Made by a program: the position numbers and the translations under genes
Origin: Firmicutes bacterium UBA5389
GTDB taxonomy: Bacteria; Bacillota; DTU025
NCBI GenBank assembly: GCA_002409965.1
Contig: DHON01000105.1
Span: forward strand, 5,461 to 69,460
Reading direction: 5' to 3'
DNA: 64,000 nt
Notes under the pieces: generated by a model
Database searches by the model: none
Told to the model about the DNA's origin: nothing
What the model saw: only the letters and a program-made list of their open reading frames with translations
Shown here: positions 1 to 26,782 of the stretch, one piece after another
Layout: each line of letters opens with the position of its first letter
How positions within the stretch are numbered: the first letter of the stretch is position 1

Positions 1-943
1 GGAGATCTGAGTCTCGAAGAACGATATCCGTATCAGCTAGCCTGTCCAGCAACCCTGACACATGACCCAGCTCGATCTCTCGAGCCACTAGGAGGCTCTC
101 AATCTCGCGGTCTACGCGTACCGTGGTCCGCAGAATGAGGTTGAGGTTCCCAATGAAGCTCATCGGCTCTTTCGATTCTCCTAGCGATTCTGCACACCTC
201 TCCGCGAACAGGTTGATGCGATCTAGCCAGTCGTGTCTCATGAGCGGAGGTTCACCAGACACCAGGCTAGGAAACCGACTCAGCTGGGGATACAGACTCC
301 TCGCATCAGTCGTCTGCCAAGCCAGATTCCACACCGATTCCAGCGTCTGTGCCTTGCTTGGACGCCGCTTTCTCGAGTCCGCAGTGCTGTGTTCAGCCCA
401 CTGATGCTGCATCTGCAATTCGGATATCCGTTTACGCACGGCCTTTCTGGTAGCATCGACCGTTTTCACAATTTCGCTGATGGAAACGGGAGTCTCAACG
501 AGAAAGTCCTTGAGCAGAACTTCGGCATCTTGCTCTTCGAACAGGTGATGCAAGACATCCTGAGAGAGAAACCCGGCTCTAACAGCGAGTTTCCTGTGAT
601 CTGCCGGCACATCTCTCCAACTGCCAGCGTCCCAGTCAACATGTTCATTGGGGCCGGATACGGTGGCTACGAGCTTGTCCTGCGTTCCATCTTCCATCAG
701 TGCCTCTATGGCAACCGTGGCACAGTCCGTCCGCCCCACCGAGATGACGGGCACACGTTCCTTGTAGTAGTGTCCAGTTAGCGCCAAGCATAGTGCGTCC
801 ACGAGACTAGTTTTTCCGAATCCATTAGGACCTGTCACTAGGACGATGTCTGCGTCTGTGTCCAAGGTCTTGGCCTTGACGAATCCGCGGAAACCCTCTG
901 CTGTGATCGTTCTGACTCTACATATTCTCTGTGGCATCCAAAT
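1..943 (-). CDS. SMC/RecF-like ABC ATPase, N-terminal part (LmuB-like); partial, continues beyond the window start
   Basis: The reverse-strand ORF starts at ATG 941-943, overlapping the stop of the upstream gene. My translation is MPQRICRVRTITAEGFRGF...IVLVTGPNGFGKTSLVDALCLALTG: a Walker A (GPNGFGKTS) plus the 'DAL.LAL.G' motif typical of SMC/RecF/AAA_23 heads. It reads open to position 1. It is absent from the supplied ORF track because no stop lies inside the window. Confidence 0.7.
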   Translation of the reverse strand, partial: MWMPQRICRVRTITAEGFRGFVKAKTLDTDADIVLVTGPNGFGKTSLVDALCLALTGHYYKERVPVISVGRTDCATVAIEALMEDGTQDKLVATVSGPNEHVDWDAGSWRDVPADHRKLAVRAGFLSQDVLHHLFEEQDAEVLLKDFLVETPVSISEIVKTVDATRKAVRKRISELQMQHQWAEHSTADSRKRRPSKAQTLESVWNLAWQTTDARSLYPQLSRFPSLVSGEPPLMRHDWLDRINLFAERCAESLGESKEPMSFIGNLNLILRTTVRVDREIESLLVAREIELGHVSGLLDRLADTDIVLRDSDL

Positions 944-1628
944 CAGCCTCTCTCATTCTCTCGCCAATGCAGTCCAGTCGCCCCTGGATCCAAGCGTCAA
1001 GCTCAGACCTAAGGTACTCGGTGTCACCGTCTCGATTGGTCTCAGCAGCATGGCGCAATATGGTGATGATCTGGGAGATCAAAGCACGGTGAAGCTCTGA
1101 CAGGCTCATCGAGTCCCCTTTGTCGTTGAGCCTGCGGATAAACGTTTCGGTGCTTATCGGCTTCAATGGAGCACTCATTTCGCTCGTCCCCGTGCCTAAC
1201 ACGGCCCTCGATACACACTCCGAGACCGCGGCGATGGAATCAACTGGAAGCATGGCGAAATCTCCACGGTGCCAGTCCTGGTTGCTCGAGGCAGACTGGA
1301 GTTCCTGCAATAGGTTCTGATCTTCCGCGAGAGCAATGCAGATACAAGGACCGAATAGCCCAAGCTGGATTGCGCACGCCGCCATGGTTCTCATCAGGCG
1401 TGCAATGTCGTTGGCACACCGTACCTGATGACCCTGTACGCCTTCCCGCTGAACCACGACTGCGCAAAGGGCAATGTCCGTCAAGTACACGCAGTCCAGC
1501 TCTACAGCACAGTCGGGCGGCAGCGCACATCGCTTGGTGTCATCATCCAGCCGTAGCTCGGCTCTCCGGAGTGGTCCAAATGGCGCAGTCCGCTGGCTGA
1601 GTTCCAGACCCGCTTCTGTGACACTCAT
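918..1628 (-). CDS. Hypothetical 236-aa protein, candidate small middle subunit (LmuC/DdmB-like position) between the SIR2 and SMC genes
   Basis: The ORF is overlap-coupled to both neighbours: its stop overlaps the ATPase start, and its start overlaps the SIR2 stop at 1625-1628. I see no recognisable motif. Confidence 0.5.
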   Translation of the reverse strand: MSVTEAGLELSQRTAPFGPLRRAELRLDDDTKRCALPPDCAVELDCVYLTDIALCAVVVQREGVQGHQVRCANDIARLMRTMAACAIQLGLFGPCICIALAEDQNLLQELQSASSNQDWHRGDFAMLPVDSIAAVSECVSRAVLGTGTSEMSAPLKPISTETFIRRLNDKGDSMSLSELHRALISQIITILRHAAETNRDGDTEYLRSELDAWIQGRLDCIGERMREADLDATENM

Positions 1629-3577
1629 ATGGCATGCACCTCCATTACCGGTCGCGCTACACGGCTTATGCGAGGCCGATCCTCATCGACAAGGAGATTA
1701 CAATGGGCAAGGTTGCGTGTAAACACATTCTGTATCGAATCAGCAGTCGATGAAACGCCTGCATTGGTTCGGAGCAGACTGCTAAGCGGTATTGAGTATA
1801 CGTGGATGAAACGCGTAGCTGTTGCTTCCTCATCTTTCTTGTCCATGGCCCTGATCCTCATAGACTTCGCCTTGACAGAGTGTCCGACCAGTATCTGCAC
1901 TATGGTACCCACGTTCCCGAGGCAAGACGAATAAGGCAGCGTCTCGGTCGAGCTGAATGCGCAGTCAGGGTGAGTCAGCGTGATCAGCATCTTCGGCCCA
2001 GCCTTTAGCTCGTCGTACCTGAAGTAGGTTCCAAGTATGTCAGTGCAATTGACTCTCTGCTTGATGTACTCACAGGAGGCCTGAGGCGACAGGACGGTAG
2101 TATGTCTCCCGTATAGCAAATAGAGCACCAGAAAGAACGCTGGCACAAGTACTGGCCTATCGGCCAGTGCACAGTACCAACTGCTGCTGTCTTTCCAGAC
2201 CTTTTGACGATACCTAACATGCCACATCCACCTTGACAGAAGCGTTGAATGGCCATCTAGATCGAGCATTGCCTGCAATCTCCCGAAAATATGCATGTTT
2301 GAGTCATCGCCAAGCGACGGCGTAGGGAGCAGCCAGTCTGTAAGCTCAGCCATCAGGGCATGTGAGCCATAGGATGCCTCATCAACCACGTGCCAGAAGG
2401 TCGTTCCGGGCCGAAGCTGTGCACAAAGCAGCTTCCAAAACACAGCCATGTACACGTACTTCCACAGCAGATCGGCAGCGAGCGCCCTACCCCCCGCAGT
2501 GCCCGGCCAGAACGAACCGTCCCGGCCGGTCAGGCAATTGCCGTAGACTGACAGGTTCTGTTCCGACAGGGTTACGCCGCATGAATGAAGGAACGAGAAG
2601 AGCATCTGTTTCTGATCGAAGGAAAGGCATTCTTCATACGCGTGCACAAACGGAGCATTGGGTTGTTGCCACGCGTCCGAGGACTCCCTAGGTGATTCAG
2701 GACCGCGATTGTCTAGTGTCGGAGCGCCATCTCTATTGCCCGAGCTGCCGAACTCCTCACAGATCTGAGTGAACGTGTGCTTGACCTGAGGCTCCGGACT
2801 GCCAAAGCCACTGAAGACAAGGCATCGAGTACGAAGTCGGTCCCTAAGCAATTCCCGGCTCCAGTGCCGATCACGCCAGTCCTGAAGTTGGGATCCTGTG
2901 AGCAGGATGGTCTTGGCGAGCGCTTCCCGATCGGACCACCGGTGGTGCGTTGAACTGCGCGCGAGACGCTCCGAGCATCCATTGATGTAGTATACCTTGA
3001 GCACCGGTCTACCATCCGCGCTTCGGAAGCCCGCGCCGTTCCTATACTCATGGAGATTTGCAATCTCCTTCAAATGCTTGTCGGAATGCAGGCATTGGTT
3101 CTCAAATGTGTCTACGAAGGCTCTAGAAATGCAAATGTCGAAATTGGTGGTGATTATCTCCTCGATGACGCCCTCTCGAGCCAGGAACGCCAGATATCGA
3201 TGAGCCGGTACGATACAGATAGTGGTGAAGTCCTGAATGCGCAGTGTTCTGTAAACGAGGGACTGATATGGGTATCGTGATCCTCTGCTGGTTGTCTCCC
3301 ACACAAACCTGTCACAGCAATACGCCAAGGAGCGGGGGCTGTTGCATTCTCCTCGAGACATCTGCGCTTGACAATCTCCGTAGCACTGCAGATTCCGGCA
3401 CACCCGATTAATCATGTACGATGTCTTTGCCACCGGCCTTCCCCTAGGGCAGGTCGACCCATATGATATTCCAGCGCCGATGAACGGGACTGCGCTCCTG
3501 TCCATGATCCGCTCTACAAGCCTGGCAAAACGCGCCTCCGTGGTTCCATTGCCCGAGGCTCTCGCTTCCTCAGCCAT
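1625..3577 (-). CDS. SIR2-family (SIR2_2-type) protein of 650 aa, a likely NAD+-depleting effector (LmuA-like position)
   Basis: It carries 'SAVPFIGAGISYG' (a GAGIS NAD-binding loop) and 'EEIITTNFDICISRAF' (the TTNYD-type SIR2_2 motif). It sits 5' of the small ORF and the SMC ATPase on the same strand. Confidence 0.7.
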   Translation of the reverse strand: MAEEARASGNGTTEARFARLVERIMDRSAVPFIGAGISYGSTCPRGRPVAKTSYMINRVCRNLQCYGDCQAQMSRGECNSPRSLAYCCDRFVWETTSRGSRYPYQSLVYRTLRIQDFTTICIVPAHRYLAFLAREGVIEEIITTNFDICISRAFVDTFENQCLHSDKHLKEIANLHEYRNGAGFRSADGRPVLKVYYINGCSERLARSSTHHRWSDREALAKTILLTGSQLQDWRDRHWSRELLRDRLRTRCLVFSGFGSPEPQVKHTFTQICEEFGSSGNRDGAPTLDNRGPESPRESSDAWQQPNAPFVHAYEECLSFDQKQMLFSFLHSCGVTLSEQNLSVYGNCLTGRDGSFWPGTAGGRALAADLLWKYVYMAVFWKLLCAQLRPGTTFWHVVDEASYGSHALMAELTDWLLPTPSLGDDSNMHIFGRLQAMLDLDGHSTLLSRWMWHVRYRQKVWKDSSSWYCALADRPVLVPAFFLVLYLLYGRHTTVLSPQASCEYIKQRVNCTDILGTYFRYDELKAGPKMLITLTHPDCAFSSTETLPYSSCLGNVGTIVQILVGHSVKAKSMRIRAMDKKDEEATATRFIHVYSIPLSSLLRTNAGVSSTADSIQNVFTRNLAHCNLLVDEDRPRISRVARPVMEVHAI

Positions 3578-3980: not shown

Positions 3981-6305
3981 CTAAGAAGACGGCGGACTCA
4001 GATCGATCCGAAAGTCCTTGAGTAACTGGGGAATCTCCCCATCGCCTATCTGAGCCTGTAGGTACTCAACCAGATCCTGTTGCCGTGGCTGGCCAAAGGC
4101 CATCCGATATAGAGCTAGACGCTGATGCAGCGTATTCACGGCCTGAATCTCCCAACTCATGGGTAGAGACGCGACATGCCGGCGAGTTCTGTAGCCCTGC
4201 GCAGGCTCGTACACCCAGAACGGTTCGAGATCGCTTCTGCCGGCCCCTCTAGCTCTTAATGCCCGTTGGAACATGAGCCCCCATGGATCAGCTAACCCCG
4301 GAGGTCGACTAATCCTGCGCCAGACGGCACTCATACCCAAATCGAGCGCAAGGTTTCGCCGTACGGTGTGGCATTTGTACCTGTGTACGCGACCATCACG
4401 CTGCTCAAGGTCCACCGGGTTGGTGGGCAGATTCCAGTGGTAGACCTCATGGCAGTATTGATGCAGATCCACTCCCTCCTGGCCTGTTGAGGTGGTAGCG
4501 AGGATGAAGGGACGAAACGGCGAGTTGAAAGCCGACATTACCTGTGCTGAACGCACTGCGCGGTCATTTGCATCGTCTGCGCTGTCTTTGCCGTCTCCTA
4601 GCCTGATGGCAAACTTACATCGAATTCGGTGGTTCTCCAGCAACAGCTGGTCTTCGCAGCCGTCATGAGCATTGTACGAAATCTCATCAAAATCCAGGGC
4701 GACTGTCCTTATCGTAAGGGCACTGCATACCTTGTCGCAAATGGCTCGCAGATTCGTTGCGAGGTCGGTGTCCGCAGTCCCAGTTGAGTCACTGAGGACA
4801 TGGAGGTACTCATCCATCACCGACTGCAAGTTTCCGCTGATGCAGTAGTCCAGCACGCTGACGCGGTAAGGATCTGAGGTCTTGGTCCGCTTCTTCTGAA
4901 CCAAGATAGACGACTCCGGCAAATTGAACATGTCCCTGAAAGCCAGAGCTACCTTCGCTGCACAGCTCATCAGAATCATTCCCTCCGTGTCGGCGGGAGG
5001 CCTGCTTCTGAGCAATCTGCACATGGCCCGAAGAGTCACAACCGCCGGCGATCCAATGGCCACCTTGGCCAGCGTCTCGGCCACCCCGTCCAGGACACGC
5101 TCTGGTATAGCTCGCCCACGCCGCCGCGCGCTGCGGGAGCGGTTATGTCCCTCTAGCTCATCGAATCCGCGCACAAACGCCTCTACGTGCTCTCGAAAGC
5201 CAGCCGAGTCCCCATCGTCGGACCTAGATCGCACCATTGCGCTCCATCTCTCGCCGGCACAGCAGTCCTCCGAATGCAGCCAATGCCCTGACAGCTCAGA
5301 ACTGTAGTGAGCATCCAGCGCCGCCATGGACATCCATGTCCAGTACTCGGTAGAACAGTATCGGGACCGCTTGTTCACAGCCGTGCCTCGACCCGTTATA
5401 CCACTGCCGCAAGTCTCAGTACCCGATCCCACTCGAACTCGTGACAGGAGGCTACGCACCTCTGCCGCCGCCCTTTTCAGCAATACTGACTCCTCCGGAA
5501 TCTCACCTGCACCATGGCCCACGCAGCTAGCCGCGATTTTCGCAGGGTCGATCATGGTAGCTAGTGTCCAACACGGGTAGGCTAGGGTCAGGTTAGCCAT
5601 ATTCTCGGGGAATCCGCCTGCGCCTCTGTCGAATCTCAGGATGCCAGTGCTGCGCTTATCGCTACTGTAACGGACTGAGCGTACGCCTGCCTCGACAGCT
5701 GCTCGTCTCTCCGCCTCGTAGCTGCACAGCATAGCAATGACCTTCGGGACAACCTGCCACGCTGAGAACACAAGCGACTTGGTGAACCCTTCTCGTGGGA
5801 CGGCTGAGTAAGGTTCTCGTGCCGGACGGCAATACGGCAGGGAAGGAGGAATCCATAGAAGCCGCCATAAGGCAGTGTCAATCGTATTCCGCATGAGGAC
5901 ACGCAGCCTTCCGTTAGCGGGATCTATCTTCCTGTAGTGGTTTACGTCATCCCACTTCAGCTGTGTCTTCAGTGCTGCGCGTATCGCTTCCTCAGCTGCC
6001 TCATGGTAATCGGTACCTGTGATGTAGTCCTCAAGCCGCCTCTTCAAGTCGTATGCGCTCTTGTCCATGCAGTTTAGGATGTACGGCGCGGACTTCCAGT
6101 ATTCCACTGCATCAGGAGCGCCCAGGCTGCGAGCCACGCGGTCTACCGCGCAGAACGATCTGAGATCCCGGGGCATAACAATGCACGAATCACGCACTTC
6201 CTCAACCATCCCGCCGCGGTCAGGCGTTGCAGCCAGGCGTTCGGTGCGCACCATTACTCTTCGCAGACACTTCTCCACTGCCTCTTTTGCCTCCGACCTA
6301 TGCAC
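3981..6305 (-). CDS. Helicase C-terminal-domain protein of 774 aa (SF2 motifs IV-VI only); no Walker A or DExH found
   Basis: 'KSLVFSAWQ' looks like motif IV. 'ILATTSTGQEGVDLH' looks like motif V, and 'NPVDLEQRDGRVHRYK' like motif VI (QRxGRxxR). About 400 aa lie between motifs IV and V. The apparent start is GTG at 6305. No GxGK[ST] or DExH appears anywhere in the ORF. Confidence 0.55.
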   Translation of the reverse strand: MHRSEAKEAVEKCLRRVMVRTERLAATPDRGGMVEEVRDSCIVMPRDLRSFCAVDRVARSLGAPDAVEYWKSAPYILNCMDKSAYDLKRRLEDYITGTDYHEAAEEAIRAALKTQLKWDDVNHYRKIDPANGRLRVLMRNTIDTALWRLLWIPPSLPYCRPAREPYSAVPREGFTKSLVFSAWQVVPKVIAMLCSYEAERRAAVEAGVRSVRYSSDKRSTGILRFDRGAGGFPENMANLTLAYPCWTLATMIDPAKIAASCVGHGAGEIPEESVLLKRAAAEVRSLLSRVRVGSGTETCGSGITGRGTAVNKRSRYCSTEYWTWMSMAALDAHYSSELSGHWLHSEDCCAGERWSAMVRSRSDDGDSAGFREHVEAFVRGFDELEGHNRSRSARRRGRAIPERVLDGVAETLAKVAIGSPAVVTLRAMCRLLRSRPPADTEGMILMSCAAKVALAFRDMFNLPESSILVQKKRTKTSDPYRVSVLDYCISGNLQSVMDEYLHVLSDSTGTADTDLATNLRAICDKVCSALTIRTVALDFDEISYNAHDGCEDQLLLENHRIRCKFAIRLGDGKDSADDANDRAVRSAQVMSAFNSPFRPFILATTSTGQEGVDLHQYCHEVYHWNLPTNPVDLEQRDGRVHRYKCHTVRRNLALDLGMSAVWRRISRPPGLADPWGLMFQRALRARGAGRSDLEPFWVYEPAQGYRTRRHVASLPMSWEIQAVNTLHQRLALYRMAFGQPRQQDLVEYLQAQIGDGEIPQLLKDFRIDLSPPSS

Positions 6306-6309
6306 TCTC

Positions 6310-6385
6310 TACTTGCCAAACAGACCCAGCGACTCGCAGGAGTCCTCCATGATGCAGTTGCTCGATGCGACAAGACTGAACGGTC
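6310..6385 (-). pseudogene. Remnant of a DegT/WbpE-type aminotransferase, a ~25-codon mosaic with an internal deletion
   Basis: The minus strand reads PFSLVASSNCIMEDSCESLGLFGK*. This joins two motifs of the 25.5-26.8 kb DegT gene (PFSFIASSNCI ... EDSCESLGS). Nucleotide identity by eye is ~30/33 and ~26/30 over those two blocks. It ends at a TAG immediately 5' of the GTG start of the helicase-C ORF and in the same frame. Confidence 0.5.
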
Positions 6386-6571: not shown

Positions 6572-7537
6572 TCAAGATCGGCGTACGTGCCTTCCAATCG
6601 CTTCAACCGCCAGGTCGGCGAGGAACTGGGATCCGGATCCGATCTCCATCAGCTCACGCATGGCGTCTACCTGGCTGGAGTCATCCAGGAACGATGCAAG
6701 GGCGCAGTGATTCCTAGTCCCCACTGAGACCACTACATAGAGATAGCTGACGTGGTCTCTGTCGCTCCGACCAACCTTGAACCTGACCACGTATGCATCA
6801 CCCTCCGGGCTCAGCACGAGCACGCTGCGGTATCCTCCATCCCACCAACAACCCCTGATGCGTCCCAGAGGTCTGGTACCTATGCCCATGTCCTCCATGA
6901 ACGTGTGTCCGCGCCATTCAAACGGCTCGGTGAACACTGCCGAATTCGAGCCAATGAGTTCATGCAAGCGCCCTGCAGGTTCCGTCGCGTCCGGATCGCT
7001 GAACGTGCCAGACGATAGCAAATGAGCGCTTTCGCCGCCACTACTATAGGGCTGGTCTGCCAATTGCCCTAAACCGCACTGACATTGCTCCATATTCAGC
7101 TGGCCAAAGTGTGGCAGTTCATCTACAGGTGTTTTGCTGTGACGATAGTGATCCATCATCCAGGCCTTTACTGCCCGCCCGTTGGTCAACGCCATATAGC
7201 GTGCTCCCGTAGCTGTGCAATAGCCGAAAGCTTGCTCTTCATGGGCGACAGTCAGCGAAACGCCCTGCTTCTTGCATTCCACAACCATCAACGCACACTG
7301 CGCCTTCGCCGGCTTCACGAGGATGTCCGCTCTCTGCCCGCTCCCGTCCTGCAGAGGAATCTCAGTATGAATCCATGAAGACGGATATCCATACTCCTGC
7401 ATGAGCGTCTCGACGGCATTGTGCCTGACCTTCTCCTCACCAGTTAGGCGCACGAGCCTCTGACGGCTGCGGTCAAGCCAGTATTTCCTCCTGCCGCAGC
7501 GATACGTGGAGCGCCCGTCCCAGTTCCCTATGATCAT
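6572..7537 (-). CDS. PD-(D/E)xK nuclease-like protein of 321 aa (HsdR-N / Mrr-like N-terminal domain)
   Basis: 'EIPLQDGSGQRADILV...CALMVVECKKQG' fits the D...E-x-K pattern of type I R-subunit N-terminal / restriction-endonuclease-like domains. It lies 8 nt downstream of the Dna2-like gene on the same strand. Confidence 0.5.
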   Translation of the reverse strand: MIIGNWDGRSTYRCGRRKYWLDRSRQRLVRLTGEEKVRHNAVETLMQEYGYPSSWIHTEIPLQDGSGQRADILVKPAKAQCALMVVECKKQGVSLTVAHEEQAFGYCTATGARYMALTNGRAVKAWMMDHYRHSKTPVDELPHFGQLNMEQCQCGLGQLADQPYSSGGESAHLLSSGTFSDPDATEPAGRLHELIGSNSAVFTEPFEWRGHTFMEDMGIGTRPLGRIRGCWWDGGYRSVLVLSPEGDAYVVRFKVGRSDRDHVSYLYVVVSVGTRNHCALASFLDDSSQVDAMRELMEIGSGSQFLADLAVEAIGRHVRRS

Positions 7538-7544
7538 ACGTCGG

Positions 7545-10500
7545 TCACCGCCTGTACACCGCCAGCCGCGTGCCTTCGGGATGCATGTCGCACTTGACTG
7601 TGAAGTCCAGGGCCTGGCCTGCGGCAGTGTGCATTCCGAGCCTGCGCATCATGCCGGCGCCCATTGCAGTCTCAGGGTTTTCCAGTACAGATAAACAAGG
7701 CTTGAGCAATGGACGTGGGACGAACACTATACATTTCGACTTGGCTCTTGTAACGGCAACGTTGAAGCGGTTAAGACTGTATATGAACTCGCCCTCGATC
7801 ATAGCGCATTCCGGGTCGGCCAGGCCGTAGCTGACGATGACGACTTCACACTCCTGCCCCTGCATCTTGTCGACGGTGTCGACGAAGTGCGGCGCGCGCA
7901 GGTTGCGTCTGTCCAGCTCCTGTTTGATGGCGGATATCTGCGCGTGATGGGGCGACACGATGAACAGGCCCCGCTGCCAGAACGCCGCATCCCCGGCCAT
8001 GGTGTCGGGGAATGGGCGATTCGTGCTCTCGTCCTTCAGGCGTCTGCGCAGTTCGCATGTGAGTTCCGCCACGAGCTCTGCCTCGGCCCAGTTTGCCGCG
8101 CCTGTCTGGACATCCTCCAGCACGCACATTGTCCATGAATAGGCGGGATCGATCACGGTTTCGACCCACTGGCGTTCAGTGCGCGAGCCAGCCGAACCAC
8201 GTCTTGCCGAGCCGCCGGCTGAGCGCGGCGCGGCAATGGGCATTCGCCTCTCCCCTACTCTTTCGTTGGCGCTACGGTATCCGGGTCCGTACAGACAATC
8301 TGCGCTGAAGCTGCACAACGACGTGTTCATGCGGAAGTTCTCCAGCAGCTGGCAGGTAATCGTGTTGGCCTCACGGTCGTGCTCGCGAACAGCCTCGAAC
8401 ACTGAGCGATGAAGCACCGGTTCGTCTGGGCCGACCTCAGGATACACGCCATTAATGATTGGCGAAAGCTGTTTGTCGTCTCCGGCGATGATTAGGCGGC
8501 CCGCCGGCGACAGCCGGGAGATGGCCAGCAGTGACTCGGCCGCTTTGACCTGGGAGCCTTCGTCGATCACCACTGCGTCGAACGGGCGCGGCCCGGGCTG
8601 TGACCTAAACGCCTTGAGCATGGAGTACACGGTGCCGCCCACAATGCACTGCTCATTCCGCCCGATGAACCCCATCGCCCCGTCACGATCGATACAGTCA
8701 ATGCCTTCGCAACCCTGGGTGTAGACAGGCCCGAGCTTTGCGAGCGGAGCATCATCCTGATCCATGCCGAGATCCTCCCGGAGCGAATCTATCTTTCGCA
8801 GACAGTTCTCAATGGCGGCATGGGTAAAGGCTGTGACCAATATGCGCATGGGTCTGCGCGCGCGGGTCGCCGCCTCCAGCAGTGTCAGGACTGCAAGGGC
8901 TAGGAAGTGTGTCTTCCCGGTACCCGGAGGACCCCATACAAGCGTCAGTTGGTTGTCGATGATGTGGCTGAGCGCGTCTAGCTGGCTGTCTGTGAAGCGA
9001 TCCCGCCGCTCTCTGCGCTTCAGGAGCCTCTCGATCTCTTTGCGGACAGGGCCCTTTAGAGCTGTCCTTGGCCCAAGAAGGGAGTGCGGCGACGTGAGCA
9101 CAGTGGTGGCCGGGGCGGCGCCGGACTGGTCGATCTCGCGCAGACGCCCGATCACTCTGTCGGTGTTGAAGTCCGTGAACGCTGGGTGCAGCAGATAACG
9201 CCTCCCCGGCACGATGTTGGGAGACTCGGGGCCAGGCTTGATTCTCAGGGTGAAACGGCGGCGGTCGCCCTCGACCTCGATCTCCCCGCAGATCTCGGCG
9301 AAGGCCAGCGCCGCGTTCTTCGGAACGAACCACTTGTTCCGCCACCTGTAGTCGGCGAAGCGCATCTGCGCCATCTCGCCGTCCTCGGAATCCTCGGTGA
9401 GCAGAAGACGCCACTGGCCGACCAGCTGTTCGATCTCTGGCGACGTTGTTACGAAGATACCCTCCCCGGCGGCGACTATGGGTATGGTAGTCCCCGCCCT
9501 TTCCCTTTCGAGACGGGTGAGCGTGCGCACATTGCGAATACTCAGATAATCCATGACGCTTTCATATCTGGTCATGAAAGCTAGCCGTGAAAGCACTGGG
9601 TCACTGAAGTCATCAGGCATGGGCATGCGGAATTTGGGCGGCCAAGCGAAGAGGTTGTCGGCGTGGTCACGGATTCGGTCCACCACATTTCGAGCTGCCC
9701 ATAATCGAATCCTCAAGCGGCGCCCTATCCGTTCCACATAGTCTGACTTACCACGATACCACACGTCGAATATGGCGTCGGACTTCAGCCTGTTGGAGAA
9801 GGCGAAGTCCCAGTAGGCGTCAACCTCATAGCTGAACGAATCGCTGCTATCCTCGTCGTTGAAAGCCGCGAGCACGTCACCCAGCTGGTAGGCCACAGCG
9901 ATGGGCATTTGGAAGAGTCGACGGATCACCGACGTGAGCGCCACAAGAGGGGAATCCGCAGTCTCATCCGGGCGCTCTTCGGTCGACATGAGATCCTCGC
10001 TCTGAAAATGAAACAGCAGAGCCAGAGCTTCCTCCGCCACATCTGGATCAGACAGCGCTTCCAGCAGGAGTTCCCTGAGCAGATCGGCTTCATACGAATC
10101 GAAGACATATGTCTGAAGCGACTTCTTGTCCTTCCACTCGCTGTGTGCGGCATTGTAGTCGTCAAGTTCCTGGAAGACCTCGTAGAGCGCCAGCACGAAG
10201 TCGCGCCTCACGTCCTCGCACTCATCGGGGCACGACGCTACGAACTGCCGGGCGTCGTAGCTGTCGGCAGAGAACACCTCATTGCTGCCGGTGCGGAGTA
10301 GACCTGCAGCGTATGTCAAACCCGATACAGGCTCGCGCTGCAGTGTCAACACCAGGCGAACGTTCTCGCCGCGGGGCATGGCAGGTGTGGCGCCGCCGGA
10401 CGCCACGACTTCGTCGGTGGTCAAGGCCTCGACTGCGTACTCCAGTTTCTCCTCTTGCCCGCCCAAAGTGGCCGAACCGTCGAGGATGCTGGGGGCATCC

Positions 10501-11369
10501 GCCCGCCTGAGGAATGCTGCCAAATCCGCAAGGGTATCAACGCCGTTATCTCTCAACAGACTGCGGCCCGCGGTAGTCAGATACGGAACCAGGGACACAC
10601 TCTGAGTTTCTTTGGCCTCTTCCCAGCAGTGTTCGAAATACTCACACCACTCGCACCTGTAGTTGAGGTGCCACGGCGCCTCAAGAGGATCGCACGACGT
10701 GATGCGGGGCAGCTCAACTCGGAGGAATTCCATCACGTAGAGCCTTATGGGTTCCTCGTCGAATACCTCGGGAGAGTCGGCTCCATATAGCCAGATGGCG
10801 GAGTCCTCGTATGACAGCTCTCCTGCGATACCCTGCGAATCCAGCACATGCTGCAGAATCAGCGCATACAGGCAGGTCTGCACCTTGTGCGACGTCTTCA
10901 GAGCGTCGGACGCCTTGACATCAATGACGCGGAAGGCGCGCTTGCGCCCCGGCAGGCGTTGTATGAGGTCAGGCCTGCATTGGCCGAACGACACCTCTTT
11001 CGGGTTCAGGTTGTAGTCCTCATAGAAGGACGGTGGGGCCTTCAGTGTGGCCTGGTAGAGGTATTCGCCGCTCTTCATCTGAGCCAGGCACCTGAGGCCG
11101 TCGCGCACCTCGAAGGTTCTCTCAGTAACGCGCTGATCGCCCGGGCCCGGCGCGATATGAACCTTGCCCGCGATCCTCTCCTCAATCACCTGCTGTTCCC
11201 ACTCGTACCCTCCCTGCAAGATAGCCCTGGTCACAGGGGAGTGATCGTACGGCGGGACGTAGATTCCGCGCCGGCGCTTCTCATCCTTGGCAATCGATCC
11301 AAACAGCAAGCATCGGTCACATTCGTGGTAGAAATGGCGAGCGATGCGAGACGGCGATAGTGAGTACAA
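7545..11369 (-). CDS. Dna2-like nuclease-helicase of 1274 aa: N-terminal Cas4/RecB-type PD-(D/E)xK nuclease with a Cys cluster, C-terminal SF1 Upf1/DNA2-family (AAA_11/AAA_12) helicase
   Basis: N-terminal region: 'FRVIDVKASD' and 'CLYALIL', plus 'YRCEWCEYFEHCW' (the C-x2-C-x5-C of Cas4/AddB-type Fe-S nucleases). Helicase motifs: 'LVWGPPGTGKTHFLA' (Walker A), 'AVVIDEGSQV' (motif II), 'DDKQLSPI', 'VDKMQGQECEVVIVS' and 'NVAVTRAKSKCIVF'. Confidence 0.8.
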   Translation of the reverse strand: MYSLSPSRIARHFYHECDRCLLFGSIAKDEKRRRGIYVPPYDHSPVTRAILQGGYEWEQQVIEERIAGKVHIAPGPGDQRVTERTFEVRDGLRCLAQMKSGEYLYQATLKAPPSFYEDYNLNPKEVSFGQCRPDLIQRLPGRKRAFRVIDVKASDALKTSHKVQTCLYALILQHVLDSQGIAGELSYEDSAIWLYGADSPEVFDEEPIRLYVMEFLRVELPRITSCDPLEAPWHLNYRCEWCEYFEHCWEEAKETQSVSLVPYLTTAGRSLLRDNGVDTLADLAAFLRRADAPSILDGSATLGGQEEKLEYAVEALTTDEVVASGGATPAMPRGENVRLVLTLQREPVSGLTYAAGLLRTGSNEVFSADSYDARQFVASCPDECEDVRRDFVLALYEVFQELDDYNAAHSEWKDKKSLQTYVFDSYEADLLRELLLEALSDPDVAEEALALLFHFQSEDLMSTEERPDETADSPLVALTSVIRRLFQMPIAVAYQLGDVLAAFNDEDSSDSFSYEVDAYWDFAFSNRLKSDAIFDVWYRGKSDYVERIGRRLRIRLWAARNVVDRIRDHADNLFAWPPKFRMPMPDDFSDPVLSRLAFMTRYESVMDYLSIRNVRTLTRLERERAGTTIPIVAAGEGIFVTTSPEIEQLVGQWRLLLTEDSEDGEMAQMRFADYRWRNKWFVPKNAALAFAEICGEIEVEGDRRRFTLRIKPGPESPNIVPGRRYLLHPAFTDFNTDRVIGRLREIDQSGAAPATTVLTSPHSLLGPRTALKGPVRKEIERLLKRRERRDRFTDSQLDALSHIIDNQLTLVWGPPGTGKTHFLALAVLTLLEAATRARRPMRILVTAFTHAAIENCLRKIDSLREDLGMDQDDAPLAKLGPVYTQGCEGIDCIDRDGAMGFIGRNEQCIVGGTVYSMLKAFRSQPGPRPFDAVVIDEGSQVKAAESLLAISRLSPAGRLIIAGDDKQLSPIINGVYPEVGPDEPVLHRSVFEAVREHDREANTITCQLLENFRMNTSLCSFSADCLYGPGYRSANERVGERRMPIAAPRSAGGSARRGSAGSRTERQWVETVIDPAYSWTMCVLEDVQTGAANWAEAELVAELTCELRRRLKDESTNRPFPDTMAGDAAFWQRGLFIVSPHHAQISAIKQELDRRNLRAPHFVDTVDKMQGQECEVVIVSYGLADPECAMIEGEFIYSLNRFNVAVTRAKSKCIVFVPRPLLKPCLSVLENPETAMGAGMMRRLGMHTAAGQALDFTVKCDMHPEGTRLAVYRR

Positions 11370-11460
11370 TACAGACTACCTCCCAAGCACTTCAGCGCGG
11401 ACACCGCGGGGCTCAACCCTCTACCGTCCGTTCCCTCCGCGGTAGATGTTGCCGCTGGGA

Positions 11461-11754
11461 TCATGCCGTTCCACGTGTTGCTTCTCGGTATCGCGCAAGT
11501 CGTCCTTTCTCGCAGACGGCTTGGCCTCGCCAAACTATCCACTGCTTCTTCGGATCGAGCCTTCCCGAGCGTACATGCTGCTGCTGCCTAACCCGAAGAT
11601 CCTCGGTCTGCCCGATGTACTTAATCTCGCCCGTCCTCTTGTCGATGTGCCTGTAGACACCCGGAGCATTCGGAATGGGACACTCCGAACCCTCGGTCTG
11701 GTCGGTCTTCTTCATGCGACCCGGTGGGATCGCTGACTTCTTGCCGCAAGACAT
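11461..11754 (-). CDS. Small GIY-YIG nuclease-domain protein (YhbQ/UPF0213-like)
   Basis: 'GVYRHIDKRTGEIKYIGQTEDLRVRQQQH' fits GIY-(x9-11)-YIG...R...H spacing. The true start may be an internal Met. Confidence 0.6.
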   Translation of the reverse strand: MSCGKKSAIPPGRMKKTDQTEGSECPIPNAPGVYRHIDKRTGEIKYIGQTEDLRVRQQQHVRSGRLDPKKQWIVWRGQAVCEKGRLARYREATRGTA

Positions 11755-11843
11755 ATCTCAGTCCTCCCGATTGGCGAATCTGCTATGGAGAGCAGAGTAA
11801 GCCGGATACTCTTGTGATTGCAGCGTCCATCTGCATACCTGCT

Positions 11844-12482
11844 CTAGTTGCCTAACAAGTCTTCGAGGATCAGCAACGCGGCAAGAGTCCTATTGAACAC
11901 CCTACGTGCCGTGCCCCACCCCGATGCTCTGAATTCCTCTTCATCTCTCTCGTACTTGTCTATTAGCGCGCTCATCTCTTGCTCACGTTGCTTCTCCGCA
12001 TCCAGCAGGGGCGTCTCCACCGGCTTCTCGATCCCAAACACCGCATTCAGTCGTGCTATCACCTGCCCAACCGGCTCATCGCCGTCTAGTTCATCCACTA
12101 TGTAGCTGCACCCATCCACAGTCTTGACATACGCGACCTCGTACTTTACCTCCCTATCAACAGGCCCGTTCTTGGCGATCGCCGGGTGATCTATCTGCTC
12201 GGTGAATGTCTGGTATGCGATGCCGTAGCTCCGGATCGTGGATGTTCTTATCACGTCCTTGCCCACCTGAACAAAGGCCGGGCATGCGTCCGCGATTATG
12301 TGCACCTTGATCGCTTTGGCTCCTTTGGGACTGCTCTCCGCCTCAAACTCGACTCTGGCACCTACTTCAGGCAGTTCTGGCGGCTGCACGTCGCTCACGT
12401 GGAAAAAGTACTTCTTGCCTTCGTAGTCATAGATGAACCCGAATCCGCGATCAGGAAAGTACTTTCTGATTATGCCACGCAT
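11844..12482 (-). CDS. Cold-shock-domain (CSD/OB) protein with a ~140-aa C-terminal extension of unknown function
   Basis: N-terminus 'RGIIRKYFPDRGFGFIYDYEGKKYFFHVSDV' matches the CspA-type RNP1/RNP2 pattern (GxVKWFNxxKGFGFI...DVFVHxS). Confidence 0.65.
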   Translation of the reverse strand: MRGIIRKYFPDRGFGFIYDYEGKKYFFHVSDVQPPELPEVGARVEFEAESSPKGAKAIKVHIIADACPAFVQVGKDVIRTSTIRSYGIAYQTFTEQIDHPAIAKNGPVDREVKYEVAYVKTVDGCSYIVDELDGDEPVGQVIARLNAVFGIEKPVETPLLDAEKQREQEMSALIDKYERDEEEFRASGWGTARRVFNRTLAALLILEDLLGN

Positions 12483-12683
12483 GGATCAACACTCCCCGCT
12501 TCATGTGTTCTCAGCAGTTCTTCAACACTGACTGCCCCGCCGTGCGTGATTGACTCTAGATACGCCACTCGCTCTTCCCGGTGCTCAAGCCTAGCCAAAG
12601 GCGTTCCGGCTACGATGGGACCGTCTGGTGCCAGAACCGGAACGCCCTACAGTAACATCATGGGTAACGAAATGCGCCAGGTT

Positions 12684-13211
12684 CTACTTGGGCATGAAAA
12701 AGAGAGATTGTATCTCAGATTTCCAGTCACGGTCTCCAACCAGTTGGTTGAAGTTCAGCGAGTAGCTGGCGGCTTCTACTAGGTCGCCTGATACACGCGT
12801 GGGGCGATGTGGCACGCCATTGTCATCAGTCCAAGCATCAAAGTCAAAACGACCGATCAAGGTGTGCTTATTGAGCGAGGTGATTCTGCGAACAAGTGGA
12901 ACGAAATCGCTGTCCCCTGTGATCAGCACAGCAACGTCATACCGATCCTCATGTGCGAAGTCAAGCACGTCAATTGCCAGCTCGACATCGACACCCTTCT
13001 GAGCTAGGCGATACTTTACATCGTCTTCGCCCGGGCACGGCTTCGGGATCTCGCGAACGGGTAGAAAATGCGGGGTGATACCAGCGACAATAAGCGCCAT
13101 CTCGAAGTCGCGTTCTTTCTGAAGCTGTCTTTCATCTGCCACATTCGTACTCGTGCGTCCGTCGTAGTAGTGGGCCGCAACTACTTTGGTAACGTCGACT
13201 GCTGCCTTCAC
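12684..13211 (-). CDS. NYN-domain (LabA-like, PIN-fold) putative ribonuclease
   Basis: 'KGVDVELAIDVLDFAHEDRYDVAVLITGDSDFVPLVRRI' is the characteristic NYN acidic-residue core. Confidence 0.75.
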   Translation of the reverse strand: MKAAVDVTKVVAAHYYDGRTSTNVADERQLQKERDFEMALIVAGITPHFLPVREIPKPCPGEDDVKYRLAQKGVDVELAIDVLDFAHEDRYDVAVLITGDSDFVPLVRRITSLNKHTLIGRFDFDAWTDDNGVPHRPTRVSGDLVEAASYSLNFNQLVGDRDWKSEIQSLFFMPK

Positions 13212-13546
13212 CTTGGCAGCGACATAGGTCTCCAGAAAGTGATGAAGGTTTGGAAGCGAAAACCATCCGCGTTGCGCAAATTACCGGAAATAGACCTGCC
13301 CCTGCCGAAAGTAGCTGCCATCGTAGAACACCATCACTCTGACAGCCTCCATGGTGCATACCTGCCTTTCACTGTTGTTTGGTAGCCCTGTCAGCTTTTC
13401 ATGTGCGCTATCCCGATAGACCGAGCCAGTGAACCACCTCCTTTGCGTCCAGCAAGCGACGGATCGTGAGAGGTTGGCAGTGCGCTTCCAGGTCGCTTAT
13501 GATGCGTATTCGCCCGCCGATGATGGGCGTGCAGAATGCTACCGCC

Positions 13547-20053: not shown

Positions 20054-22480
20054 CTAGCTTGCCGTCGCCGCTCCGAGGCAGGATGCTGCTAGCTTGGCCT
20101 GCGTACCGCTGGCGCTCGCACACCAAGCAGTCAGGTTCGGCTCAGCGTCTGGCAGATGGGACAGTACGTGTGCTTTATTGAGGCGATACATGAAGCACAA
20201 GATGTCCTTTGCTGTGCGTTTCTTCTCGTCCGATGACAAGTGGCCAAAGAAGCTCTTTTCGGGGGCTCCTTGGATACTCTCCATAAAGTGGCTCTCACCA
20301 TGGAGGACTAATCGATACATCAAGTTCCGGTAGTACATTCTTGACTCATCATCTGGTAGCAGAGCCAACACTCGCTCATCCAGGCTGACCTCTACAACCC
20401 CTTTCTTGAACGAAAAGGAGGCAAAAGCCTCTAGCACTCTTCTCATCATGTTTCCGATCACCAGGTCGGAGTCGAGATCAGCCGCAGTGCCCGCAGCATA
20501 CTCGTAAACCTTTTGAAGCAACCGGGTGTACTCGTTGTGTCTCTCATGCTGGAAACCGGACAACGACCTGCCATCAAGCTGAAACGGGCGATATTCCATG
20601 TTGACTGCTGTCTGCTTGCAGCGTTTCTTTACTTCGTCCAGCATCTTCTCCATATCGAACATCACGCTCAGGTCGTGAGTCATGACCAAGACCCTGCTAG
20701 TTGGGCAGCCAACGAGGACTTGTTCGAGTCTCCACCTCAAGAACGAGAGTATCCCGATTCTGTTCTCCAAATCGAAGCTCGAGATAGGATCGTCAATCAC
20801 CAATAACATCTCGTCGGAATATACCGCCTTGACGTCCATGTCCTTCGCTGCCTCTGCAAAGAAATAGCAGAGAGCAATTACGTTCCTTTCGCCGCAAGAC
20901 ACCTTGTTGGGACTGATGGGCTGCCCGTTTGCCCTTAGGTGATAGACTCCGTCAGATCCCAGTTCTAGCGAGAGCCGCCCCCGGCAGAAGAAGACGTAGT
21001 CCAGCGACCTGTTTATCTCCTCAGCAGCAATATGGAGGTTTCTTCGCTGCGAGTCCAGAAACGTCCTCTTGCGCTCCAGTTCCGCGAGGCTTGCTCTCAT
21101 TTGACGCAACTGGTCGTCTGCGATCCGCTTCGCCGTTCGTTGCTTTTGGAGCGAGGCGTACATACTCTCGATTGTCCAGTGGGCAATCTCGTCATTGAGA
21201 ACCAGAAGTTCGTTCTTCACAGCAGCCCTCTCACTGAGAGTGCGGTTGAAACTCACTCGATCGGCCTCCAACGAGGCTAGCGCCCGATTCAACGCATCGT
21301 GAGCCGCTGCCACACCGATAGAGTCGTCATACACCATCTTCCCGAAAGGACTATTGATCTTCGCTGTGACAGCATCGTTGTGAGCAGCGACCGCAGTGTT
21401 GTAGTCACTGAGCCGCTCCAGTACACAGCCACATGATTGTAGGTCACGGTAAACCTGATATGTACCGGTCACCGCTTCAGGAATCAGCAACCGCTCAAGC
21501 TCACCCGTGAACTCGTCAACATCACGGTTCAGAATACGCTCGATACGTCCGAGAGCTTCGACTCGGTACTCATCCCTTATCGGCTGAAGGCATTTATCGC
21601 AGACAGTATGCTTCGGATCAGAAAGAAGCGCTCTCGCGCTGGTTATGACCGTAACCCCAAATAGGTCCAGCAGACTCTGTTCTCTGTCCGTCAATTGCGG
21701 TCTCTCAACTACCTTATCAAGAAGCAGTCTTGCCCTCTCGATGACATCATTGACAGCAGGCACTAGTGCGACTCCTGTGGCAATCGGCGTTGATGCGGCA
21801 CTGACTGCGAGGTACTGCGGAAGCCGGCGACTCAACTCACCATGGAGATCTGCCGGAGACCCCGTCGAGGGCATCTTCCCAATTCTTCCGATCTCAGCAT
21901 CGGTAACCGAGAGATTCTGTCTCTGCCCCTTGATCCTTGAGCCAACGTCAGCCCATCCATTGGCTTCGCGAAGTCTGCTGTGAATCTGCGCGAGCCAGTA
22001 GTCTGGCGAGTTGACGTCACTCTTGTTCGTGAATCGCACGCATGCAGTCTCCTGATTGGACACCTCCGCTACCATGGCCTCGATGAGCTTCTCTGTCTCT
22101 GCGATTTGGTCCTCTATAGCTACCTGCTCGCCAAAGAGCACAATCGCGTCCAGTCCCGAGCCTTTGACCTTTACACGAGACGAGACGTATTCTTCATCGA
22201 ACACAAGGATCTTCTCGGGTTTCGCCGTAGAAGCGGCTCCGAGGCGAAGAGTGCCCATCATGGGCTCCAGTGTGACGGTTCGAGGATTGGCCGCATCCCT
22301 GTACTCGCGGAAACCCTGCGCAATCGTGCTTTTCCCGCTTCCGTTCTTCCCATACACAAGGGCTACACGTTTGCGCTTGTGTGACTTTGAATCCTCCGGA
22401 AACAGCTCTAGTGACGTAGTGCTAGAGAAATAGGCAGAGGATATGGTCACTCCTGTCATGCTCCCAATCGTGGTCACCAC
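20054..22480 (-). CDS. AAA_13 / RloC-PrrC-like ABC ATPase of 808 aa with a coiled-coil insertion carrying a CxxC (zinc-hook-like) motif and a C-terminal ~240-aa domain (candidate anticodon-nuclease-like)
   Basis: Walker A 'VYGKNGSGKSTIAQGF'; the coiled-coil middle carries 'CDKCLQPI'; Walker B 'MLLVIDDPISSFD'. Confidence 0.6.
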   Translation of the reverse strand: MVTTIGSMTGVTISSAYFSSTTSLELFPEDSKSHKRKRVALVYGKNGSGKSTIAQGFREYRDAANPRTVTLEPMMGTLRLGAASTAKPEKILVFDEEYVSSRVKVKGSGLDAIVLFGEQVAIEDQIAETEKLIEAMVAEVSNQETACVRFTNKSDVNSPDYWLAQIHSRLREANGWADVGSRIKGQRQNLSVTDAEIGRIGKMPSTGSPADLHGELSRRLPQYLAVSAASTPIATGVALVPAVNDVIERARLLLDKVVERPQLTDREQSLLDLFGVTVITSARALLSDPKHTVCDKCLQPIRDEYRVEALGRIERILNRDVDEFTGELERLLIPEAVTGTYQVYRDLQSCGCVLERLSDYNTAVAAHNDAVTAKINSPFGKMVYDDSIGVAAAHDALNRALASLEADRVSFNRTLSERAAVKNELLVLNDEIAHWTIESMYASLQKQRTAKRIADDQLRQMRASLAELERKRTFLDSQRRNLHIAAEEINRSLDYVFFCRGRLSLELGSDGVYHLRANGQPISPNKVSCGERNVIALCYFFAEAAKDMDVKAVYSDEMLLVIDDPISSFDLENRIGILSFLRWRLEQVLVGCPTSRVLVMTHDLSVMFDMEKMLDEVKKRCKQTAVNMEYRPFQLDGRSLSGFQHERHNEYTRLLQKVYEYAAGTAADLDSDLVIGNMMRRVLEAFASFSFKKGVVEVSLDERVLALLPDDESRMYYRNLMYRLVLHGESHFMESIQGAPEKSFFGHLSSDEKKRTAKDILCFMYRLNKAHVLSHLPDAEPNLTAWCASASGTQAKLAASCLGAATAS

Positions 22481-25541: not shown

Positions 25542-26782
25542 CTATCCCCGCTCCCCGAGCGCCCCCTCCAACACCCCCGCAACGTACTCGACCTCTTCCT
25601 CTGTAATCCTGTTATGGAACGGTATCGCCACACTCGTCCGCCCCACCGCCTCCATCACCGGGAAGTCGCCCTCCCTGTACCCGAACCGCTCGCGGTAGAA
25701 CGGCTGCAGATGAATGGGCGTGAAGTAAGGCCGGCACCCGATCCCCGCCTCCTGGAACCGCTGCATCACCCGGTCTCTCACCGCCTGCTGCGCCTCGGCC
25801 CCGGCCTCCTCGCACCCAACCCGGATCACATAGACGAACCAGCTCATGAAGTCTACCTCCGGCGCCACCCGCGGCACCCAGACCCCCTCTATCCTCAACA
25901 GCCGCTCGCGCCACATCTGGGCCACCCGCGCCCGCTTCTCGAGGATCTCCCCGATCCGCCCCATCTGCACCACGCCCAGCGCCGCCGACATCTCATCGAT
26001 CCGGTAGTTGTAGCCCAGCCTTTCATGCGCTAGCCACACCCCTGCCTCGCCCCTGCCCTGGTTCCGCATGCTGTTGCATAGCGCGGCGATGCGGTCGTCG
26101 TCGGTGACGATCATCCCGCCCTCGCCCGTGGTTATCTGCTTGTTGGGGTAGAACGCGAACACAGCGGCGTCCGCGAAGTCCGGTCCGCCGGCTTTCTTCC
26201 CATTGTAGACCGACCCCAGCGACTCGCACGAGTCCTCTATGAACACAAGACCATGCTTCCGCGCGATATCGCGTATCTCATCTAGACGTGCCGGCTGCCC
26301 GAACGCATCCACCGCCAGTACCGCCCTCGCCCTCGGCGTGATGGCCTGCTCAATGAGGTCGGCGTCCATGTTCGCCGTGTCGGGCTCGATGTCGACAAAC
26401 ACCGGCTTGGCTTTCTCATACAGGATGCAGTTGCTCGATGCGATGAAACTGAACGGCGTGGTGATTACCTCATCACCGTCAGAGATGCCGTACGCCCGGA
26501 TCAGCAGGTGAAGACCGCTAGTGCCGCTGTTCACCGCCATGCAAACATACATGAGTTGTCTTTCGACGAACGCTTCGGCATGCTGGTTGACCGGGAATGG
26601 GCTTGTCGGCAGGACAGGCGACTGACCCGCCTGCTCTCGGAACCACCGGATTCTTTGGCCCGGAACAGGCGGGCGATTTCATCGGAATACGCAGCCAACT
26701 CAAACGGGGCCGCGTTCAGTGAATTCTCCCACTGAGAATCCGGCACCAAGAACAGCAATGGGAAGTGGAGCGTACTAGCCAT
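25542..26782 (-). pseudogene. DegT/DnrJ/EryC1/StrS-family PLP-dependent sugar aminotransferase, disrupted by a 1-nt frameshift near 26650-26662
   Basis: The 83-aa ORF (26531-26782) gives the N-terminus ('...RLFRAKESGG'). The next frame continues '...WFREQAGQSPVLPTSPFPVNQHAEAFVERQLMYVCMAVNSGTSGLHL...' into the 336-aa ORF (25542-26552), which carries the DegT motifs EDSCESLGS, GEGGM and LHLQPFY. The frame switch is at 'tccggtggttcc'. Confidence 0.7.

Follow-up and report, generated by a model that had tools for sequence, protein, structure and literature searches.

An intact Bad-family (bacterial DNA2-like) nuclease–helicase gene within a bacterial defence island

The stretch of DNA analysed here (the window: 64,000 nucleotides (nt) of contig DHON01000105.1 from Firmicutes bacterium UBA5389) contains, on its minus strand at 7545..11369, one unbroken open reading frame (ORF) of 1274 amino acids (aa) that starts with TTG. 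The frame itself, Pfam, full-length BLASTP and comparison with homologues identify the product as a nuclease–helicase of the Bad (bacterial DNA2-like) family. A GGGAGG ribosome-binding site, read from the sequence, is positioned 9 nt 5′ of the TTG codon (11379..11384, minus strand). Residues 1–25, including Cys17, the first Fe–S ligand, are kept in homologues, and the long reading from TTG is therefore the right start. The ORF does not arise by chance, because about 110 full-length homologues are found at E = 0. A preliminary description of this DNA had placed a nuclease–helicase fusion at 7545–11369; the ORF is real, and its strand is here specified as minus. Family membership and the integrity of the catalytic motifs are virtually certain.

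The protein is composed of three parts, all encoded on the minus strand: an iron-staple RecB/Cas4-type nuclease domain (aa 1–260; 10590..11369), a Bad-specific central region of ∼500 aa (aa 261–789; 9003..10589) and a superfamily 1B (SF1B) helicase core of the Upf1/DNA2 type (aa 790–1225; 7695..9002). Pfam locates Cas_Cas4 at residues 117–249 (E 5e-6), AAA_11 from residue 792 and AAA_12 at residues 987–1216, in agreement with the proposed fusion of nuclease and helicase, and NCBIfam adds a partial match to the TM0106 RecB-like nuclease model (TIGR03491). The C-x2-C-x5-C cluster that had also been reported is present as CEWCEYFEHC at residues 239–248 (C239, C242 and C248), with Cys17 as the fourth ligand. 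In an alignment of 88 full-length homologues all four cysteines are invariant or near-invariant, as are the residues of the nuclease and helicase motifs. The four-cysteine iron-staple pattern of the Bad family is thus complete in this protein, and an Fe–S cluster is predicted. RecB nuclease motifs 1–3, along with the RecB-specific QxxxY motif, are found at E58, D134 (in CRPDL), D150 and K152 (in VIDVKAS), and Q164-x3-Y168, and Foldseek matches given below agree with this assignment. The helicase motifs are intact, with Walker A as GPPGTGKT (K819; nt 8910–8933) and Walker B as DEGSQ (nt 8550–8570). The closest solved relative of the helicase part is mouse DNA2 (5EAN, E 3e-40), which fits the ‘Dna2-like’ label given to the protein earlier.

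Sequence searches of the PDB give no match to the N-terminal 780 residues, and no Pfam family is found in the central region of the window protein or of seven diverse relatives. An AlphaFold2 model that covers the N-terminal 790 residues, made from an alignment of 88 sequences, has very high confidence (predicted local distance difference test (pLDDT) 92.7, predicted template modelling score (pTM) 0.90). In a Foldseek comparison with the PDB, the best matches to the nuclease domain are Cas4 (7mi5 and 7mi4) and AdnAB (7sjr). The model of the central region begins with a helical linker, followed by a β-β-β-α-β-α-β-α unit at residues ∼335–485, a long helical segment and a β-barrel at residues ∼629–730. 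We infer an RNase H-like topology for the ∼335–485 subdomain; Foldseek links the central region to PIWI, RNase H, EndoV and Upf1 only weakly, with E > 0.01 throughout. In a rare protein, P0119, Pfam finds RNase_H_2 at the corresponding place ahead of an SF1 helicase. Kinship to this protein was considered and rejected, the profile comparison with Bad being not significant (probability 0.3%).

Wilkinson et al. (Nucleic Acids Research (NAR), 2020; PMC7430649) described Bad, working with the enzyme of Geobacillus stearothermophilus. The protein is a 1245-aa monomer with an Fe–S cluster that is active alone in vitro as an ATPase dependent on single-stranded DNA (ssDNA), a 5′–3′ translocase and helicase, and an ssDNA endonuclease, and it loops out ssDNA while unwinding (PMC7430649). 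Members of the family share a conserved central domain, the fold of which was not known in that study, and are sporadically distributed; their physiological role was stated to be unknown (PMC7430649). For a direct comparison we used Bad of Geobacillus thermoleovorans, a species from the published family alignment (PMC7430649). BLASTP aligns the two proteins over their whole length at 38% identity (E = 0), running unbroken through residues 260–790, the central domain. Asp150 of the window protein corresponds to D150 of Geobacillus Bad, mutation of which gives a nuclease-dead enzyme, and Lys819 corresponds to K815, the Walker A lysine whose mutant is ATPase-dead (PMC7430649). Membership is established by test and not by resemblance, because the alignment is direct and full-length and the mutated residues coincide. 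The full-length relatives also include genera of the published alignment (Methanoculleus, Methanohalobium and Competibacter). Judged by these alignments, the 1274-aa protein adds a member to a published, biochemically characterised family and is not a new kind of protein; the preliminary description had suggested a distinct variant, which the end-to-end match to Bad contradicts. By homology, the window protein is very likely to have the biochemical activities of its Geobacillus counterpart.

Geobacillus Bad and the window protein have the same three-part architecture (iron-staple RecB nuclease, central domain and SF1B helicase) and similar lengths (1245 and 1274 aa), but their settings differ. 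The window protein comes from a Bacillota-like anaerobic-digester lineage, lacks an adjacent Mod-like methyltransferase, and is followed by an HSDR_N_2 gene inside a multi-system defence island. Eukaryotic DNA2 (mouse; PDB 5EAN and 5EAX) likewise has an N-terminal Fe–S RecB-type nuclease ahead of an SF1B helicase, but it is without the ∼500-aa central region of Bad (PMC7430649). In DNA2, a β-barrel and stalk connect the nuclease straight to the helicase. In addition, a sequence profile does not detect the DNA2 nuclease from the Bad N-terminus, and DNA2 is ubiquitous, essential and vertically inherited, whereas Bad is seldom found and close relatives have lost it by deletion. The central insertion, the rarity, the non-synteny and the deletions in relatives rule out a eukaryotic or archaeal DNA2 orthologue.

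The cysteine pattern and RecB motifs are shared with the AddB, Cas4 and TM0106 (TIGR03491) nucleases, and in TM0106 proteins the nuclease is likewise followed by an RNase H-like domain, an order proposed here for Bad. These proteins lack a fused SF1B helicase, apart from the rare RNase_H_2–helicase proteins (P0119). Among defence proteins, Hhe, Mokosh MkoA/MkoC and Nhi resemble Bad in combining a nuclease with an AAA_11/AAA_12 helicase in one large polypeptide, often stand-alone in defence islands. However, their nucleases are of the PLD, Vsr/MTES_1575 or DUF4011 types, their domain orders differ, and, unlike for Bad, their anti-phage activity has been demonstrated. Membership in Nhi, Hhe or Mokosh was rejected on the basis of PADLOC and NCBIfam matches limited to segments of the helicase core: the MkoA, MkoC and Hhe models match Bad over this core only, and no Nhi model is among the PADLOC matches of the window protein down to E 0.006.

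A search of 5.8 billion proteins returned ∼110 full-length relatives (1200–1320 aa, 35–53% identity) scattered among Bacillota, Planctomycetota, Myxococcota, SAR324, Spirochaetes and methanogenic archaea. They are labelled ‘bifunctional RecB family nuclease/DEAD/DEAH box helicase’ by NCBI and ‘Dna2’ by JGI. The family is rare: of 1.84 billion cluster representatives, 166 match at E ≤ 1e-30. A contig scan with the full-length alignment drew generic SF1 helicase peptides along with at least three true orthologues, and a metagenome scan with the N-terminal alignment yielded 80 good loci. Bad loci are non-syntenic, with neighbourhoods that are unrelated from locus to locus. A conserved repair gene at a syntenic position, which the preliminary description had held up as the outcome that would count against it, is not what is seen: Bad is rare and non-syntenic, and near-identical relatives have deleted it. 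No Bad relative was found in viral contigs, the lone ‘phage’ match in INPHARED being an unverified contig with a Dpd cluster.

The gene downstream of Bad encodes a 321-aa HSDR_N_2 protein of the PD-(D/E)xK type (6572..7537, minus strand; Pfam PF13588, E 7e-19) and begins 7 nt after the Bad stop codon. A second nuclease gene had been reported at a distance of 8 nt; the nuclease domain stands and the distance is corrected. The nuclease residues D71 and E87-x-K are intact and conserved, and an AlphaFold2 model (pLDDT 79) matches the restriction-endonuclease-like structures 3ijm and 9y1l with a probability of 0.94–0.97. The β-rich C-terminal domain has no significant match among solved structures; WGR and START-like matches were discarded at a probability of ∼0.1. 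On the other side of Bad, ∼90 nt upstream, a 97-aa ORF (11461..11754, minus strand) contains the N-terminal half of a GIY-YIG domain (PF01541; E 1e-4, a score of 22.8 bits where the cut-off is 22.6, model positions 3–41 of 78). This ORF is collinear with Bad in the related loci L055, L050 and L056, and may be a gene fragment, derived from a truncated homing-type or defence nuclease. Promoter and terminator sites predicted between 6000 and 12000 are no more numerous than in shuffled sequences.

The arrangement could be that of a two-gene defence system, in which the HSDR_N_2 nuclease would serve as effector or sensor of Bad and the GIY-YIG gene might be a third part. The 7-nt gap and common strand suggest co-transcription, the catalytic residues of the second nuclease are preserved, the closest relatives retain the arrangement (HSDR_N_2 is complete in L056, at 81% aa identity, and present as remnants in L050), and nuclease–NTPase pairs are a common defence design. 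Wider comparison argues against such a pair. A tblastn search with the 321-aa protein against 134 loci, ∼90 of which have a Bad homologue, finds the closest relatives only, and some 85 to 90 other Bad loci are without the gene. The 95 immediate neighbours of 58 non-redundant Bad loci, surveyed by de novo clustering and by Pfam and PADLOC scans, include no HSDR_N_2 gene at other Bad loci and no dominant or recurrent partner of any kind. The HSDR_N_2 family itself is tiny, comprising 13 homologue clusters that all derive from metagenome-assembled genomes of Bacillota/Clostridiales, and its members are found in the absence of Bad, beside ScoMcrA_N and a Tag glycosylase, beside HEPN-MNT, or beside a transposase.

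Most telling are natural deletion variants at this chromosomal position in closely related contigs, which separate the two genes as well. In L135, the upstream 272-aa gene and HSDR_N_2 are intact, but Bad is cut to a scar that joins window positions ∼11165 and ∼7659; the resulting 73-aa remnant ORF (L135:3724-4013) fuses the first ∼68 and last ∼38 Bad codons. In L136–138, Bad is wholly gone and HSDR_N_2 is frameshifted (L136:7536-7760). A 750-bp deletion lies inside Bad in L056 (L056:2907-2912), and in L050 Bad is intact and its partner decayed. Bad and HSDR_N_2 can therefore each persist alone, and turnover at this locus is fast. Geobacillus Bad, moreover, is active as a lone monomer in vitro (PMC7430649). 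Because the partner is lineage-restricted and each gene is lost without the other, the two do not constitute a conserved system, and the two-gene explanation is improbable; a nuclease–NTPase system of the Hachiman, Gabija, Mokosh I or AbpAB type was rejected on the same lack of conserved co-occurrence. The helicase–nuclease pair envisaged in the preliminary description thus does not hold up in homologue neighbourhoods, where HSDR_N_2 adjoins Bad only in the closest relatives. The HSDR_N_2 gene is probably a lineage-specific neighbour, neither a family-wide partner nor one half of an obligate pair, and comparative genomics makes it likely that Bad is independent of it.

The first ∼38 kb of the window form a defence island. 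The downstream boundary of the Bad module is marked by a 5′-truncated remnant of the Azaca helicase gene zacC (3981..6305, minus strand; PADLOC ZacC, E 5e-192, model positions 347–1016 of 1019), which is itself outside the module. No zacA or zacB gene is found upstream of this remnant, and Bad and HSDR_N_2 occupy the place where the two would lie. A 40-nt stretch at the truncation (6285–6324) matches sequence flanking the IstB gene of an IS21 element in L136, which suggests that zacC was truncated by a deletion mediated by an insertion sequence. Azaca consists of ZacA (DUF6361), ZacB (a PLD nuclease) and ZacC (a helicase), and all three proteins are needed for its activity. Membership of the locus in Azaca was rejected, with ZacC present only as a remnant and neither ZacA (DUF6361) nor ZacB found.

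Upstream of Bad, a cassette at 11754-13545 contains a cold-shock-domain (CSD) gene (11844-12482), similar to the retron Se72 effector and PADLOC CSD_V, and an NYN nuclease gene (12684-13211; PADLOC HEC-09). L058, at 99% identity, has the cassette and contig L055, at 96% identity, does not; it was therefore recently inserted or deleted beside Bad. The other defence genes of the island lie on the minus strand. A 650-aa SIR2_2 protein is encoded at 1625-3577, with a stop codon that runs into the start of a 236-aa ORF without annotation at 918-1628 (minus strand). Further along are genes for a defence-like 808-aa AAA_13 ATPase (20054-22480) and a defence-like 1334-aa STAND NTPase (AAA_16/nSTAND5; 33859-37863). 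Between them, a complete ABC-3C trio (29144-32771) consists of the DUF3732 ATPase (29144-31114), a middle component of the MC3 type (31111-31668) and, as effector, a protein with a Cap4-like nuclease and CTD7 (31611-32771). The defence context that had been claimed for the nuclease–helicase is borne out by these genes, and the island adds evidence that the Bad family acts in defence.

The strongest indication that Bad-type machinery serves immunity comes from a split form in Dpd clusters of Alphaproteobacteria. A tblastn search of plasmids and phages with the N-terminal module of Bad gave four records: plasmid NZ_CP017427.1 of Methylobacterium sp. XJLW (L144:5328-14170), pSR-1 of Skermanella rosea (L147:17722-26375), Azospirillum brasilense (L148:17989-26671) and the unverified ‘Bacteriophage sp.’ contig MT835580.1 (L143:3989-9699). 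In all four, a hypothetical protein of ∼770 aa is homologous to the nuclease and central module of Bad (hhalign probability 99.8, E 1e-28, 711 columns). Its gene is directly followed by that of an SF1-YprA DpdJ protein of ∼2100–2170 aa, which matches PADLOC model PDLC02895 end to end and has an N-terminal SF1 domain with 32% identity to the Bad helicase. The same DpdJ model is the top PADLOC match of the window protein. The gene dpdB is near every split-Bad locus, accompanied by dpdA and queCDE where annotation exists, and DpdD-K form the restriction half of the Dpd (7-deazaguanine) system. The ∼770-aa component has no PADLOC model.

The Dpd form differs from the window protein in that the module is divided between two genes, with the helicase fused to a YprA-type SF2 helicase, and in that the pair always occurs with dpdA, dpdB and queCDE, none of which is in the window. 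Membership of the window in Dpd was rejected; tblastn with DpdB finds nothing there, and only the Bad regions match Dpd-linked proteins.

A sizeable minority of Bad loci resemble defence loci. Of the 95 immediate neighbours, at least 11 have PADLOC matches at E ≤ 1e-10: Tiamat TmtA (five), NERD-UvrD (four) and Hhe (two). TmtA of the Tiamat type, a sacsin-like ATPase with NOV_C, adjoins Bad in 5 of the 58 non-redundant loci, with variable position and orientation (L054:11803-15594, L069:9183-13670, L059:3-842 and others). In L145:955-16021, a 2006-aa fusion of a UvrD-type helicase with a full Bad is located directly after a type I restriction–modification (R-M) system (HsdM, HsdS and HsdR) and a GmrSD type IV enzyme. 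Several UvrD–Bad fusions of ∼1700–2050 aa occur.

Wilkinson et al. hypothesised that Bad is the motor–nuclease subunit of a new R-M enzyme under the control of a Type III Mod-like methyltransferase, the gene for which follows Geobacillus bad (PMC7430649). An N6_N4 methyltransferase gene next to bad was confirmed in G. thermoleovorans, and the same pair is found in seven metagenomic loci; the Dpd system, to which the split forms are linked, likewise carries out modification-dependent restriction. However, the Bad proteins of all seven loci are 78–90% identical to Geobacillus Bad and belong to the Geobacillus clade. The methyltransferase is therefore not a rule for the family. In one further lineage, a distant methyltransferase lies a few kb from Bad, and the other non-redundant groups and the annotated window have none. 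A family-wide methyltransferase partnership was rejected as clade-specific, and the R-M hypothesis is distinctly improbable as an account of Bad.

A different proposal is that Bad is an accessory enzyme of repair or of replication intermediates, acting in 5′-flap trimming, break resection or the clearing of stalled forks, with no immune role, and that the island merely collects acquired genes. Its biochemistry mirrors that of eukaryotic DNA2, including a preference for 5′ flaps and a nuclease that masks the helicase (PMC7430649), and the helicase is closest to DNA2. Several observations that favour this proposal also weigh against a defence role. Most Bad loci have ordinary surroundings, and many lie among metabolic genes, such as a his operon, an Na/Pi transporter or citrate lyase, with no defence gene alongside. 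Repair-type neighbours recur, namely HhH-GPD glycosylase in nine loci, UvrD-PDDEXK (AddA-like) in five and NucS_C in two. Further against a defence role, none of the neighbour counts, the at least 11 defence-type matches included, is set against a matched background control. The window protein has no full-length defence model in PADLOC or NCBIfam, whose matches are confined to the helicase core or to the Cas4 domain. No methyltransferase is among the scanned ORFs of the window or adjoins Bad, and no mechanism for discriminating self from non-self is evident there. A literature search found no experiment linking any Bad protein to restriction of phages or plasmids, and no follow-up to PMC7430649.

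The repair proposal is opposed by the rarity and sporadic spread of Bad and by its loss from close relatives by simple deletion. In bacteria, AddAB/RecBCD and RNase H/Pol I already carry out such tasks, an argument made by the authors of the Bad study (PMC7430649). Split and fused forms are located inside bona fide defence loci (Dpd; type I R-M with GmrSD), and the HhH-GPD link comes largely from one methanogen clade whose members cluster at 90% nucleotide identity. We regard a pure repair role as unlikely, although it is the likeliest of the alternatives. Genomic context puts a defence role for Bad at about an even chance. The best overall reading, which we favour with some reserve, is of an intact, stand-alone Bad nuclease–helicase that is probably used against invading DNA. 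A more specific version, that Bad is a stand-alone immune nuclease–helicase threading on 5′ ssDNA ends and the fused counterpart of the two-gene Dpd module (the 770-aa protein with SF1-YprA DpdJ), is tentative and a little short of even.

By homology to the Geobacillus enzyme, the window protein should enter DNA at a free 5′ single-stranded tail or flap and translocate 5′→3′ by ATP hydrolysis (Walker A K819). It would unwind the duplex while looping out ssDNA, and cleave this ssDNA endonucleolytically in front of the motor (D134, D150 and K152). Bad is best seen as a stand-alone, dispensable accessory gene, the likeliest role of which would be to destroy invading DNA that has 5′ ssDNA ends or flaps, such as replication and entry intermediates of phages or plasmids; it would then be a further module of the island. 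If this is true, a prokaryotic DNA2-like enzyme would have a physiological role and DNA2-type machinery would be tied to antiviral defence. DNA2-like enzymes would then join the end-degrading innate immune effectors of the RecBCD/AddAB type, and a name and a mechanism could be given to one constituent of some Dpd restriction modules. Taken alone, the window gene adds a member to a family whose in vitro characterisation dates from 2020. The leads on the role of Bad are the intact copy in an island, the natural deletion variants with their scars, the split Dpd version and the fusions found beside restriction systems.

A surface-polysaccharide cluster adjoins the island at 38–64 kb. We observed an isolated DegT-type aminotransferase ORF inside the island (25542-26552, minus strand), which is without the first ∼40 model positions and may be a displaced piece of this cluster. 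A protein of the UDG superfamily is encoded at the border between the island and the polysaccharide cluster (38055-38708, minus strand).

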